Of a stretch of DNA of 36,776 nucleotides, positions 32,506 to 36,776 are shown piece after piece (the first letter of the stretch is position 1; the number at the start of each line of letters is the position of its first letter). The notes beneath the pieces are model-generated. The model was not told the origin of the DNA. It searched no databases and saw only the letters and a program-made list of their open reading frames with translations. The DNA lies in the IMG/VR virus record IMGVR_UViG_2737471842_000006, positions 1 to 36,776 of that record; one strand, written 5' to 3'. The stretch is from a virus (Duplodnaviria > Heunggongvirae > Uroviricota > Caudoviricetes). A program made the position numbers and the translations under genes.

Positions 32506-32559
32506 TTGACATGATAGAAGCACTCTACTATATTCTCAATAGGTCCACGGTGGACCTAT
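32506..32559. promoter_or_regulatory. Pant promoter with Arc operator and Mnt operator
   Basis: -35 TTGACA 32506-32511, -10 TATATT 32529-32534; Arc operator ATGATAGAAGCACTCTACTAT between them; perfect palindrome ATAGGTCCACGGTGGACCTAT (Mnt operator) at 32539-32559. Confidence 0.6.
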
Positions 32560-32573
32560 ATTGTGAGGTGAAT

Positions 32574-32735
32574 ATGAAAGGAATGAGCAAGATGCCGCAG
32601 TTCAATTTGCGGTGGCCTAAAGAAGTATTGGATTTGGTCCGCAAGGTGGCGGAAGAGAATGGCAGGTCTGTTAACTCTGAGATTTATCAGAGAGTAATGG
32701 AAAGCTTTAAGAAGGAAGGGCGCATTGGCGCGTAA
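32574..32735 (+). CDS. arc: Arc repressor (immI)
   Basis: [53 protein letters not shown], 53 aa, matches remembered P22 Arc. Confidence 0.85.
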
Positions 32736-32737
32736 AG

Positions 32738-32810
32738 TTGAAGCCCCAACTGCGGGAACAGTCAGGGCTTCGGTTGTCAGTAAATCCGTGGAGAAAAACC
32801 AACATGAATA
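32738..32810 (-). ncRNA. sar: possible sar antisense RNA across the arc-ant junction and ant ribosome-binding site
   Basis: Established P22 biology places a small antisense RNA here; the interval contains hairpin GAAGCCC...GGGCTTC; boundaries are approximate. Confidence 0.3.
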
Positions 32811-33706
32811 GTATAGCAATTTTAGAAGCAGTGAACACCTCTTACGTACCATTCAACGGTCAGCAAATTATCACCGCCATGGCTGCCGGAGTTGCATACG
32901 TTGCGATGAAGCCAATCGTTGAAAACCTTGGAATGAGTTGGGGTACTCAGCAACAAAAACTTATGAAACAACTAGATAAGTTCAACTGTATTCATATGAA
33001 TATGGTTGCCGCTGATGGGAAGCTTCGTAAGCTACTCTGCCTTCCTTTGAAGAAGTTAAATGGATGGCTGTTCAGCATCAACCCTGAGAAAGTTCGTGCT
33101 GACATCCGCGATAAACTGATTCAGTACCAGGAAGAATGCTTTACTGTGCTGCATGACTACTGGACGAAGGGAAAGGCAGAAAATGCACGTAAGAAAACAT
33201 CTGTTGATGACAGGACTCCGCTTCGTGATGCTGTAAATATGCTAGTCAGCAAAAAGCATCTAATGTACCCAGAAGCTTATGCAATGATTCATCAGCGTTT
33301 CAACGTGGAAAGTATTGAAGAGCTTGATTCATCTCAGATACCGCAAGCAGTAGAGTACATCCACAGGGTAGTGCTTGAAGGCGAGTTCATCGGCAAACAA
33401 GAGAAGAAAACCAACGAGATTTCTGCAAAAGAAGCAAACAGCCTTGTATGGTTATGGGATTATGCCAACCGTTCACAGGCATTATTCCGTGAACTGTATC
33501 CGGCATTAAAACAAATTCAATCGAACTATTCCGGCAGATGCTACGACTATGGTCATGAGTTCTCGTATGTTATCGGAATGGCGAGAGACGTTTTAATCAA
33601 TCACACACGAGATGTTGATATCAATGAGCCAGACGGACCAACTAATCTTTCCGCATGGATGAGACTTAAGAATAAAGAATTGCCTCCTTCAGTACATAAC
33701 TACTGA
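32804..33706 (+). CDS. ant: Ant antirepressor
   Basis: 300 aa from [47 protein letters not shown], matching remembered P22 Ant. Confidence 0.85.
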
Positions 33707-33723
33707 CAGATAACCAACGCAAC

Positions 33724-33748
33724 GACCCAGCTTCGGCTGGGTTTTTTT
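33724..33748 (+). terminator. rho-independent terminator after ant
   Basis: Stem CCCAGC/GCTGGG with loop TTCG followed by seven T. Confidence 0.55.
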
Positions 33749-33806: not shown

Positions 33807-35627
33807 ATGACAGATATCACCGCAAATGTTGTGGTAAGCATGCCTTCGCAACTCTTCACTATGGCTCGTTCTTTTAAAGCGGTTGCCAATGGCAAAATTT
33901 ATATCGGAAAAATTGACACTGACCCGGTAAATCCTGAAAACCAGATTCAGGTTTATGTAGAGAATGAAGACGGTTCTCACGTTCCTGTTGCACAGCCAAT
34001 CATCATTAACGCTGGCGGGTATCCTGTATATAACGGACAGATTGCCAAGTTCGTAACTGTGCAAGGCCATTCTATGGCTGTTTATGATGCGTACGGTGTG
34101 CAGCAGTTCTATTTTCCGAATGTGCTGAAGTATGACCCTGACCAACTTAGGCAGGATCTTGCAGGACCAGATGGATATTATCTTATCCCATCTCTTATAC
34201 AGAAATGGAAAGATGATGGTGATTTACGTGGTTGGGGAATAGGAGAAGATGCATTTAACGCAGCTATGACTGAGATATCAGAAAGTGGCGGCGGCGTTCT
34301 TTATGTGAATGAAGACATCATTTTTAGTACAATTCCTATCATGCATAAGCCTGGGGTTACTGTTTACTGGAATAATCATCGTGCAATTGTTCCTGCCGGT
34401 TTGAGTTCAACATATGCGTATATAATGGATGGTGGTGCCGACACGCCTGTATACGATAATACCGATCATTTCACGCTAGCTAACAAGACGAATTGTTATA
34501 ATCTGCATCTTGAGGCATCTGACTATACTGTCGGTGTGAATGCTATTGGTGTATGCGTTAGGCATTGCTACGGATATACGTATGAAGGAGGGGCAATTAT
34601 TGGTTTCAATAATGGTGGTTATTACGATGAATTATGCTATGAAGGTAAAGTTAGTAAATTTACTATGGTTGTGTCCAACTCTAGAGCGGAACAATCAATA
34701 GGATTAAACAGTAATACTACGGATACTTGGTATTCGGAAATTTCCCCTGTTGGTTACGCATATGGCGGTAAAATGAATAGGAGTGGTAATAGCTTAGATA
34801 AGTTTCATCCTTGGGGGAATACTATCGATGATCGTGTTGGCTTAATGGGTAAAATGCATGTGGGATTGTGGGTTACTGAAAACGGAGGCTTTTCTACCTA
34901 CACCAATCTAATTTTGGACACTCCAGTAAGAAGAGATTCTAGTTCAGGTCCATCTAGAACTAATGGTGGTGTGGGTTTGATAAATGATGCGTGGGATACC
35001 AGTTTTGACGGTGTAATCGTCTCATGCTCTAAGCATGATATGGTGGCAAAAAGCACCCTACCAGTAATAACCTCATCACAAGGTGTAACCTATAAAGATC
35101 TTTCAGTTAGTAATCCTGAATACGCAACTGACATATGGGTATCATTTGAAAATAATTCTGGAATAGCTTTAAATCATATTATTGGATATGGATATGCACA
35201 ATTGATGCGTAATGGCGCTGGCATAAGCTCAACATCAGGAGCTGCTTTCGCTCCTGCAAATGGAGTTACCATTTCATTACAGACACTATCTTCTGGAATT
35301 TGGTATAACACATTAAACTTTTCCATCAGGACAACAATAACAGCCACATCATCTGCATCAAGCGATGTAATTGTTAATATTGCTCCTATGTATGGAGTGA
35401 GAAATGGATTTGGAGGGGCAGTTAAGGGAGGGCTAGATGCTTTCTTTTATGCAACCGCAAATACAGCAAAACAACTATATGATGTTTATGTTGAAGTAAC
35501 CTCTGCTAACACCGCCAAGTTTTTATTAACATTCATTGACGGAACAACAAGATATGCTAGATGGACAGATGTATCTAACGGATCTGCAAGGGCTATTTCT
35601 GTATCATGTAATATAGAGGTTAAATAA
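33807..35627 (+). CDS. tailspike protein: P22/Sf6-type N-terminal head-binding domain fused to a divergent receptor-binding domain
   Basis: First about 110 aa ([46 protein letters not shown]...VLKYDPDQ) are the conserved head-binding domain; the rest does not match P22 gp9 as I remember it and is visibly more AT-rich. Confidence 0.85.
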
Positions 35628-35631
35628 CAAT

Positions 35632-35660
35632 CTACAGCCACTATGTAAAAGTGGCTGTAG
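35632..35660. terminator. hairpin between convergent tailspike and acyltransferase genes
   Basis: Perfect 10-bp stem CTACAGCCAC/GTGGCTGTAG with 9-nt loop; T-rich only on the minus-strand side. Confidence 0.4.
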
Positions 35661-35669
35661 GGACTGTGA

Positions 35670-36776
35670 CTACTTGTTAAACCTGCACTCTATGTGTTTA
35701 TAAGTAAATGCAGATGCTAAGATCGTTATTGAAAGACAAATCACAGAGTATATTATTAACTGAGTTGTGTTTGTTTCAGACAGATTAACAAACTTAGAGG
35801 CTATTCTGTAAAATACATGCAGCACTGGTTGATGCAGTAAGTAAATGCTATAGCTAATTTCCCCTAAGAAAGCGATAGACGGAATGCTTAATAACCTTGG
35901 TTTTAGCACAACGCAAGACGCAAACATAAGTGATATCATGATAAATCGATAAAAGCTATATTGTTTTACATCGAAATAGAATGACATATAAAACAAAAAC
36001 GCAAAAACTATATATATAACTGCTCTAAGTGATGTTTTTTCTATGTTTATTTCTTTGATTTTTGCGCAAAGAGCCCCAGCTACAAAGTACGACCACAACA
36101 CTTTATCTTCATAGAAATCGTTGATCAATACAAAGCACCCAAAAGCAATTACCATGTACTTGAATTTTTTAGTATAGAGAGCAGTCGCTAAGAATGGGAT
36201 AGATGCATAAAACTTCCACTCATATGGGAGTGTCCACAATACTATATTTAAAGTAGCATCTCTATGTTCGCCCCAGTATAGCTCAGTTCCAAAAAAACCA
36301 AACCCAAATATTTTAAGTAATTGAGTGACAAATAAAGGAAGGTCTAATTTCCCTAACATCTGTGAAAAATATATTATAGATATTAAAGTAGCGGTAAATA
36401 GATATAATGGAACTAATCTCTTTATTCTTTTTGCGTAAAATGATGTAAAGTCTATTTTATTATTTGAAAGTATTTTTGAAGAGAACAGAAATCCAGTTAT
36501 GCAAAAAAATATCTGAACACCCAAGGCACCAGATTGGCTGAAAAGATAAAAGTTAGAGTAATCAATATTCTTAGTTTTTATCAACATATCACCAATGGCG
36601 TAAGCAGAGTGGTTGATGAAAACGGCGATACATGCAAAACCCCTGAGTCCTTCAATGTACTGAATTTTGCCCTGATCTGTAGACTTTCTAATGAAAATAG
36701 ATGTTGCCATTATTGGTACAGCAAGCATGACCAAATAGATGCAAAAGAAAGACAATGGGTAGTTATAAAGCGGCAT
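35670..36776 (-). CDS. integral-membrane acyltransferase (acyltransferase-3 / O-antigen acetylase family); start codon at the last three bases of the window
   Basis: 368-aa ORF, multi-pass hydrophobic, strongly AT-rich; resembles OafA/Oac-type O-acetyltransferases; sits where P22-like phages keep serotype-conversion genes. Confidence 0.7.
   Translation of the reverse strand: MPLYNYPLSFFCIYLVMLAVPIMATSIFIRKSTDQGKIQYIEGLRGFACIAVFINHSAYAIGDMLIKTKNIDYSNFYLFSQSGALGVQIFFCITGFLFSSKILSNNKIDFTSFYAKRIKRLVPLYLFTATLISIIYFSQMLGKLDLPLFVTQLLKIFGFGFFGTELYWGEHRDATLNIVLWTLPYEWKFYASIPFLATALYTKKFKYMVIAFGCFVLINDFYEDKVLWSYFVAGALCAKIKEINIEKTSLRAVIYIVFAFLFYMSFYFDVKQYSFYRFIMISLMFASCVVLKPRLLSIPSIAFLGEISYSIYLLHQPVLHVFYRIASKFVNLSETNTTQLIIYSVICLSITILASAFTYKHIECRFNK

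Follow-up and report, generated by a model that had tools for sequence, protein, structure and literature searches.

Tailspike gene and head-binding domain

The window analysed in this study is the whole stretch of 36,776 nucleotides (nt) of IMG/VR virus record IMGVR_UViG_2737471842_000006, and the gene in question is an ATG-initiated open reading frame (ORF) of 606 amino acids (aa) at 33807..35627 on the plus strand, which encodes the tailspike of a P22-like Escherichia coli prophage and is the final gene of its virion module. Over 66% of its first 25 kb, the window showed 96.6% nt identity to E. coli phage IME10, and weaker matches to P22 were also present; the gene order gp7-gp20-gp16-mnt-arc-ant-tailspike is the P22 set. 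A prophage in the E. coli draft assembly GCA_000798275.1 matches the whole region at 100% identity; this prophage is integrated between sbcB and dacD, and its host flanks are 99.9-100% identical to complete E. coli genomes. The P22 gene set, the similarity to IME10 and the identity to an E. coli prophage thus identify the ORF as the tailspike of a temperate P22-like (Lederbergvirus-type) coliphage.

The head-binding (tail-attachment) domain occupies aa 1-113 (33807..34145, plus strand) and matches the Pfam family PF09008 Head_binding over profile positions 1-113 of 113 (E 3e-67). The motif VLKYDPDQ, at which an earlier note on this DNA had placed the end of a conserved head-binding domain of about 110 residues, forms aa 106-113, and its last nt is 34145. 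In a sequence search against all PDB chains, Sf6 gp14 (7sg7) matched aa 1-119 (E 3e-64), phmmer matches to P22 gp9 and its relatives (2xc1, 8tvr, 5gai) were limited to aa 1-115, and an HK620-type N-domain was also found; all matches ended at aa 114-119, and there were none to the remaining ~490 residues of the tailspike. P22 gp9, Sf6 gp14, HK620 gp9 and the CUS-3 endosialidase possess the same PF09008 N-domain, and this domain in the window is 88-96% identical (aa) to those of other E. coli P22-like tailspikes, compared with 13-27% to other anchors. This homology shows aa 1-113 to be the domain that plugs the spike, presumably a trimer, onto a P22-type tail hub.

The tailspike also shares with the P22-like tailspikes its position after mnt-arc-ant, the plan of an anchor followed by a beta-helix and a C-terminal domain, and the exchange point at aa ~113-115. 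It differs from them in the module carried, which has no detectable sequence similarity to theirs beyond aa ~119 and, in structural alignment, ~10% identity with template modelling (TM) scores of 0.25-0.35. Sequence homology to gp9 residues ~125-666 was not found by phmmer against PDB or by megablast, consistent with the earlier claim that the sequence downstream of ~34140 is unrelated to P22 gp9. Similarity was lost at query nt ~330-386 in 32 phage records and 1131 E. coli records in megablast, with the exception of three records; three E. coli chromosomes align across the whole tailspike gene at ~80%. The junction had been described as a known exchange point for receptor-binding modules, and the literature bears this out, since the first 124 aa of HK620 were taken as the Lederbergvirus anchor (PMC10408124). 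The 'bsq1 boundary sequence' of CUS-3 was rejected as the domain junction, as it corresponds to the ant-tailspike intergenic region.

One receptor-binding module on many anchors

Directly after YDPDQ, at the motif LRxxLAxPDGY, protein similarity starts to modules that are carried by other types of anchor. The module is present on the T7 tail-fibre N-terminus (PF03906, with PF18668) of the Kayfunaviruses pO91 and PH1061 (66-70% aa identity), on the Kuttervirus tailspike anchor of Salmonella phage LPST94 (73%), on the PF18668 anchor of the Hafnia myovirus Meifeng (71%), and also in ECO340P1, within the 65-73% range of this group. The closest versions (89-90% aa identity) are found on PF18668 anchors in siphovirus-like prophages, whose upstream genes encode a tape measure protein, a DUF1833 protein, an NlpC/P60 protein and an 821-aa tip protein. 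Furthermore, proteins of 712 aa in Hafnia, Citrobacter and Yersinia carry the module without a recognised (Pfam) anchor. The family spans phages and prophages of E. coli, Salmonella, Hafnia, Citrobacter, Yersinia and Buttiauxella at 65-78% identity. The anchors are mutually only 11-42% identical, except for two identical Kayfunavirus anchors, and the modules borne by them are 56-100% identical by segment.

These comparisons support the view, already expressed in the earlier note, that the tailspike is chimeric, combining a P22-type head-binding domain with a receptor module unrelated in sequence to gp9. The first level of mosaicism would be an old fusion of the P22 anchor and the module at aa 113/114; the module is also in circulation among T7-like, Kuttervirus, myovirus and siphovirus-type phages, where it sits on different anchors.

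The module family is small: HMMER, run exhaustively against 1.84 billion representatives, returned only 31 proteins at E<=1e-3. According to Pas et al. 2023 (PMC10408124), a receptor-binding subtype has spread horizontally over Lederberg-, Kutter- and Kayfunaviruses, the same genera as those found here; the subtypes in that study likewise have conserved genus-specific anchors, and their specificity was inferred from the serogroup of the prophage host, as is done here. The present module family was not found described there (PMC10408124), and LPST94 is unmentioned in the paper on tailspike protein (TSP) subtypes of Ackermannviridae.

Mosaicism and probable allele replacement within the module

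A second junction lies inside the module. From 34206 to its end, the window is 93% identical to the PF18668-anchored loci L009-L012, and this similarity continues for ~190 bp further in the host contig; it covers the intergenic hairpin and the entire gene of a 368-aa Acyl_transf_3 protein, with the same 43-nt spacing. We compared informative sites three ways, among the window, the P22-like E. coli prophage of GPEC1292, and L009 as the PF18668-anchored relative. From 33807 to ~34290 the window sides with GPEC1292 (180 informative sites vs 6), and within 34107-34286 there are 53 sites matching the P22-like relative and none matching the PF18668-anchored one. Between 34291 and 34586 the signal is mixed (33 sites vs 22), and from 34587 to ~35726 the window sides with L009 (about 300 sites vs 30).

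Three parts of the module can be delimited on the plus strand accordingly. Its start, a helical neck/cap (aa 114-~161, 34146..34290), is the version common to E. coli P22-like tailspikes, with aa 114-160 being 98-100% identical to GPEC1292, 30COLEC and MB06231 and 50-60% identical to the modules of other anchors. A transition zone of mixed ancestry (aa ~162-260, 34291..34586) contains the internal mosaic junction, and is followed by the beta-helix body and C-terminal beta-sandwich (aa ~261-606, 34587..35627). In the module body the window is only 59-77% identical to GPEC1292, and its allele is nearest to that of a siphovirus-type prophage from a non-E. coli host. The host flank of the L009-type prophage had no match in 5426 complete E. 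coli genomes, so this prophage is not in E. coli; its host Slp protein is best matched in Hafnia paralvei, at 71% aa identity only.

Transfer of the module and the acyltransferase as one cassette from a PF18668-anchored prophage was rejected by the informative sites. All three loci have near-identical acyltransferase genes, that of the window being if anything nearer to the P22-like relative, hence the gene is a conserved flank rather than part of a cassette. On the sequence evidence, the anchor and neck are the left flank, the acyltransferase gene is the conserved right flank, and the module body is a replaceable island between them. The second level of mosaicism would be a more recent allele replacement at ~34590-35730, bounded by crossovers that probably took place in the conserved neck and in the near-identical acyltransferase gene. 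The mosaic pattern is evident from the alignments, and its likely mechanism is allele replacement between conserved flanks, which would change the host range. Breakpoints were placed at 34290-34590 within the module and at ~35730, where the acyltransferase gene has its 3' end. The module body tracks a different relative than the anchor/neck and the acyltransferase do.

Predicted fold and candidate residues

None of the Pfam, NCBIfam or informative PHROG families covers the C-terminal module; the C-terminal beta-sandwich has only a sub-threshold CsgC-like match, and PHROG matches are restricted to the first ~45-65 residues. The content of Gly, Asn, Ser and Thr rises from 23% in aa 1-113 to 36% in aa 114-606, in line with what the earlier note had observed of the C-terminal part. 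The module was modelled as a monomer with AlphaFold2 using 44 homologues (mean predicted local distance difference test score 81, predicted TM score 0.74), and the model consists of N-terminal helices (module residues 2-48), many short strands in succession, and a C-terminal beta-sandwich. The top Foldseek matches are the tailspikes of Det7, HK620, K2-2, CBA120 and Sf6, with a weak match to the P22 tailspike 5gai (E 2e-3). Thus, aa 114-606 are predicted to form a helical neck, a right-handed parallel beta-helix and a C-terminal beta-sandwich. The beta-helix receptor-binding domain that had been guessed earlier is what the model predicts, and its nearest folds (Det7, HK620, CBA120 and Sf6 tailspikes) came from the structure prediction and Foldseek comparison that had been proposed as a check.

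In homologues down to 28% identity, twelve polar residues are invariant (R293, D306, H334, W336, N338, D371, R375, R384, N386, D394, W396 and N456), and E279, K349 and E448 are near-invariant; these are protein numbers, obtained by adding 111 to the module numbers. Of these residues, the invariant D306, D371 and D394 are candidate catalytic carboxylates, as are the near-invariant E279 and E448. The most likely ligand of the module is a surface polysaccharide, probably an O-antigen and possibly the one of serogroup O91, and the trimeric beta-helix would most likely depolymerise it via carboxylate residues.

Two points weigh against reading a depolymerase from the model. The Foldseek TM-scores to solved tailspikes are low (0.25-0.40, identity ~10%), and the predicted fold, being common to hydrolases, lyases and mere binders, does not reveal to which of these classes the module belongs. 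The nearest solved folds, Det7 gp208, CBA120 TSP2 and the AlgE4 A-module, are 9-13% identical to the module, with no common sequence family (Pfam, NCBIfam, PDB sequence). These structural neighbours differ in chemistry, which bars functional transfer from any of them and prevents a choice between hydrolase, lyase and binder.

Nucleotide composition

The guanine-plus-cytosine (GC) content of the tailspike gene is 0.440 in aa 1-113 and 0.394 in aa 114-606, a difference that is insignificant over all codon positions (Fisher p=0.12). At third codon positions (GC3) it drops from 0.434 to 0.272 (p=0.001), and at second positions it shifts upward from 0.319 to 0.458. In a change-point scan of the gene, overall GC gave no significant break (p=0.32) and the best GC3 break was codon 417, away from the junction at codon ~114. 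As a junction locator the GC shift was consequently rejected. The description of the sequence past the junction as 'visibly more AT-rich' holds at third positions, but neither for overall GC nor as a change localised there; the composition shift is modest, clear in third positions only, and a weak marker of the junction.

The window has a GC content of 0.478 at 1-33806 and is already at 0.44-0.45 from ~30 kb onward, and the downstream acyltransferase gene is at 0.33. GC3 drops from anchor to module in eight of nine phage backbones, the exception being Kuttervirus LPST94, which indicates that low GC travels with the module. These eight backbones include T7-like phages of 50-52% GC, and GC of the module is also under that of anchor plus upstream flank in 8/9 backgrounds. 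The earlier note overlooked both the internal mosaic junction and the continuation of the low-GC tract into the linked acyltransferase gene.

Downstream acyltransferase gene

A membrane acyltransferase of 368 aa (Acyl_transf_3, PF01757, E 2e-34 over residues 39-354) is encoded at 35670..36776 on the minus strand. The gene is convergent with the tailspike gene. No other prophage gene lies between it and dacD, and its start codon is exactly where the window ends. It is 98-100% identical (nt) in GPEC1292 (L001, 7864-8970) and in L009-L012 (L009, 7986-9092), at an unchanged spacing of 43 nt, while the adjacent module differs by 25-40%, and it is present in just one of the 5426 complete E. coli genomes. 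Its best phage relatives are Sf101 OacB (30%) and BTP1 GtrC (26%), followed by the O-antigen acetylases of g341c and SPN1S; the homologues in Sf101, BTP1, g341c and SPN1S adjoin tailspikes, and identity to any characterised acyltransferase is 25-30% only. The gene is a candidate for an O-antigen O-acetyltransferase acting in lysogenic conversion. Judging from family membership and gene position, it would probably O-acetylate the polysaccharide of the module in the lysogen, and O-acetylation would block adsorption of phages with the cognate module.

Between the two genes lies a perfect hairpin with an 11-bp stem (35632..35660, minus strand), which is 100% conserved in L009-L012. Its T-rich tail is on the minus strand only, so it likely terminates transcription of the acyltransferase gene.

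An O-antigen modification gene placed after the tailspike is a known arrangement (PMC10408124). Sf6 and Sf101 (tailspike, then oac/oacB) and BTP1 (tailspike, then gtrC) combine a tailspike with a seroconverting acyltransferase at the prophage end, and the present prophage likewise has a convergent AT3-family gene directly 3' of the tailspike at the att-proximal end. Unlike them, it resides at sbcB/dacD rather than at a tRNA gene, and the same acyltransferase (98-100% nt) also follows a non-P22 tailspike in a siphovirus-type prophage of another species. Two other members of the family have the module followed by gtrABC-type glucosylation genes. Hafnia phage Meifeng, a temperate myovirus (L004, 2590-7248), has the module and then a gtrABC glucosylation cluster instead of an acyltransferase. 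The occurrence of gtrABC in Meifeng and of the acyltransferase elsewhere indicates that the module pairs with different conversion systems in different hosts.

Possible specificity for serogroup O91

The module is carried by 3/5426 complete E. coli genomes (GPEC1292, MB06231 and 30COLEC), two of which, GPEC1292 and MB06231, possess wzx and wzy of the O91 type. The O91 wzy, a 100% match to the gene in strains named O91 and O91:H21, was found in 27/5426 genomes; against this background, O91 in two of the three carriers gives a hypergeometric P=7e-5. Among the six complete genomes closest to the O-locus-linked flank of the window's host (sbcB to hisG), four are on the O91 wzy list, including D6, and one is absent from it. 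A lytic relative, a Kayfunavirus, is named pO91. The carrier enrichment and the name pO91 suggest O91 specificity.

Several observations weigh against this assignment. 30COLEC has an O21-family cluster with a wzx annotated as frameshifted, the statistic rests on three genomes that are possibly not independent, and one of the six closest-flank genomes is O173 (G3X16-2). A literature search for phage pO91 found no paper. In addition, the window allele is only ~62% identical to the O91-lysogen/pO91 allele at aa 301-470, so that its specificity may differ, and one and the same acyltransferase goes with either allele. We regard O91 specificity of the module family as a hypothesis with about equal chances either way, and that of the window allele as having lower chances than the family. 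In the survey by Pas et al. 2023 of serogroup-specific receptor-binding proteins for Shiga-toxin-producing E. coli, no O91 receptor-binding subtype was reported and no Lederberg- or Uetakevirus prophage was present in the O91 strains screened (PMC10408124). The 30COLEC tailspike (L015, 4953-9566; L014, 12296-13530) belongs to a prophage remnant: HNH, ASCH and integrase genes take the place of virion genes upstream of it, and gtrA, gtrB and a gtrC-type gene lie downstream.

Alternative explanations

The chimeric nature of the gene leaves little room for a C-terminal part that is simply a highly diverged P22 gp9 endorhamnosidase domain. The fold class is the same as that of P22 gp9, and 5gai is a weak Foldseek match, but identity collapses from 88-96% to an undetectable level within a few codons, the same module occurs at up to 90% identity on anchors non-homologous to that of P22, and nt similarity to the PF18668-anchored loci begins at 34206 and extends into the next gene. 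Divergence from gp9 without recombination was rejected, as a module shared across non-homologous anchors effectively refutes it, and we consider a non-chimeric gene extremely improbable. The composition shift, for its part, might mark neither foreign origin nor a junction, and simply follow from the amino acids and codons that a Gly/Ser/Thr/Asn-rich beta-helix uses, in a right arm of generally lower GC. The insignificant overall difference, the rise of second-position GC as third-position GC drops, the best GC3 change point off the junction, and the already lower GC past ~30 kb are in favour of this; against it stand the lower GC3 of the module than of its anchor in 8/9 unrelated backbones, the still lower GC of the linked acyltransferase gene, and the small effect of amino-acid composition on GC3. 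This explanation is judged rather unlikely.

With respect to function, the module might be a beta-helix other than an endoglycosidase, either a polysaccharide lyase/epimerase-like enzyme or a purely binding adhesin. In favour of this, the O91 antigen contains a glucuronic acid derivative, and lyases act on substrates of this type. Equally strong fold matches to the hydrolytic tailspikes Det7 gp208, CBA120 TSP2, HK620 and Sf6 count against this alternative, the tailspike fold does not separate the three chemistries, and the invariant carboxylates fit hydrolase and lyase alike; we consider it rather unlikely. The link between module and serogroup might also be coincidental, which would favour a receptor other than O-antigen. 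The occurrence of the family at 65-78% identity in phages and prophages of six enterobacterial genera points in this direction, as does the carrier 30COLEC with its O21-family cluster and broken wzx, and Pas et al. note that RBP (receptor-binding protein) subtypes present in prophages of more than one serogroup probably have another receptor as their target (PMC10408124). On the other side, two of three carriers are O91 against a background of 0.5%, a relative is named pO91, the temperate members have O-antigen modification genes (AT3 acyltransferase or gtrABC) after the module, and 30COLEC has a prophage remnant only. To our knowledge, those P22-like tailspikes that have been characterised are directed against O-antigen or K1 capsule. 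A coincidental link appears less likely still than the non-endoglycosidase alternative. Taken as a whole, the preferred explanation, namely a P22-like prophage tailspike with a two-level mosaic, a polysaccharide-binding or depolymerising module possibly specific for O91, and an acyltransferase that would exclude cognate phages, is considered probable.

Implications for host range

The modular design of tailspikes is textbook knowledge and chimerism itself adds nothing new; the phenomenon is known, and what is new here is an uncharacterised family of receptor modules. A more far-reaching and rather doubtful proposal is that this family represents the missing O91-specific tailspike depolymerase with a dedicated acyltransferase, which would function both as a lysogenic-conversion/exclusion gene and as a conserved homology arm for module swaps between prophages of podovirus and siphovirus type in different enterobacterial genera. 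Under this proposal, the window allele, which has a central beta-helix 62% identical to that of the pO91/O91-lysogen allele but is accompanied by the same acyltransferase, might be an escape variant able to accept the acetylated O91 antigen. O91 is one of the commoner non-O157 serogroups of Shiga-toxin-producing E. coli. If the O91 specificity is true, the family would provide a recognition and depolymerase module for typing, detection, and tailocin or phage retargeting. The locus is a clean natural case of receptor-module allele replacement between an anchor/neck and a conversion gene, which is useful for understanding and engineering host-range switches.

Other features of the prophage

An integrase gene is located directly beyond the left end of the window (L025, 11523-12701), and the O-antigen gene cluster of the host lies ~19 kb left of the prophage. 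A look-up of the window ORF at 270-641 gave no record. A P22-type immI region is present 5' of the tailspike gene at 32511-33706, with arc-like and mnt-like genes and the antirepressor gene ant (32738-33706), which was identified by its P22_AR_N and P22_AR_C domains. Finally, a consensus scan identified a terminator-like hairpin with a T-run (33724..33743, plus strand) between the antirepressor gene and the tailspike start; the strength of this hairpin implies either read-through into the tailspike gene or a promoter of its own.

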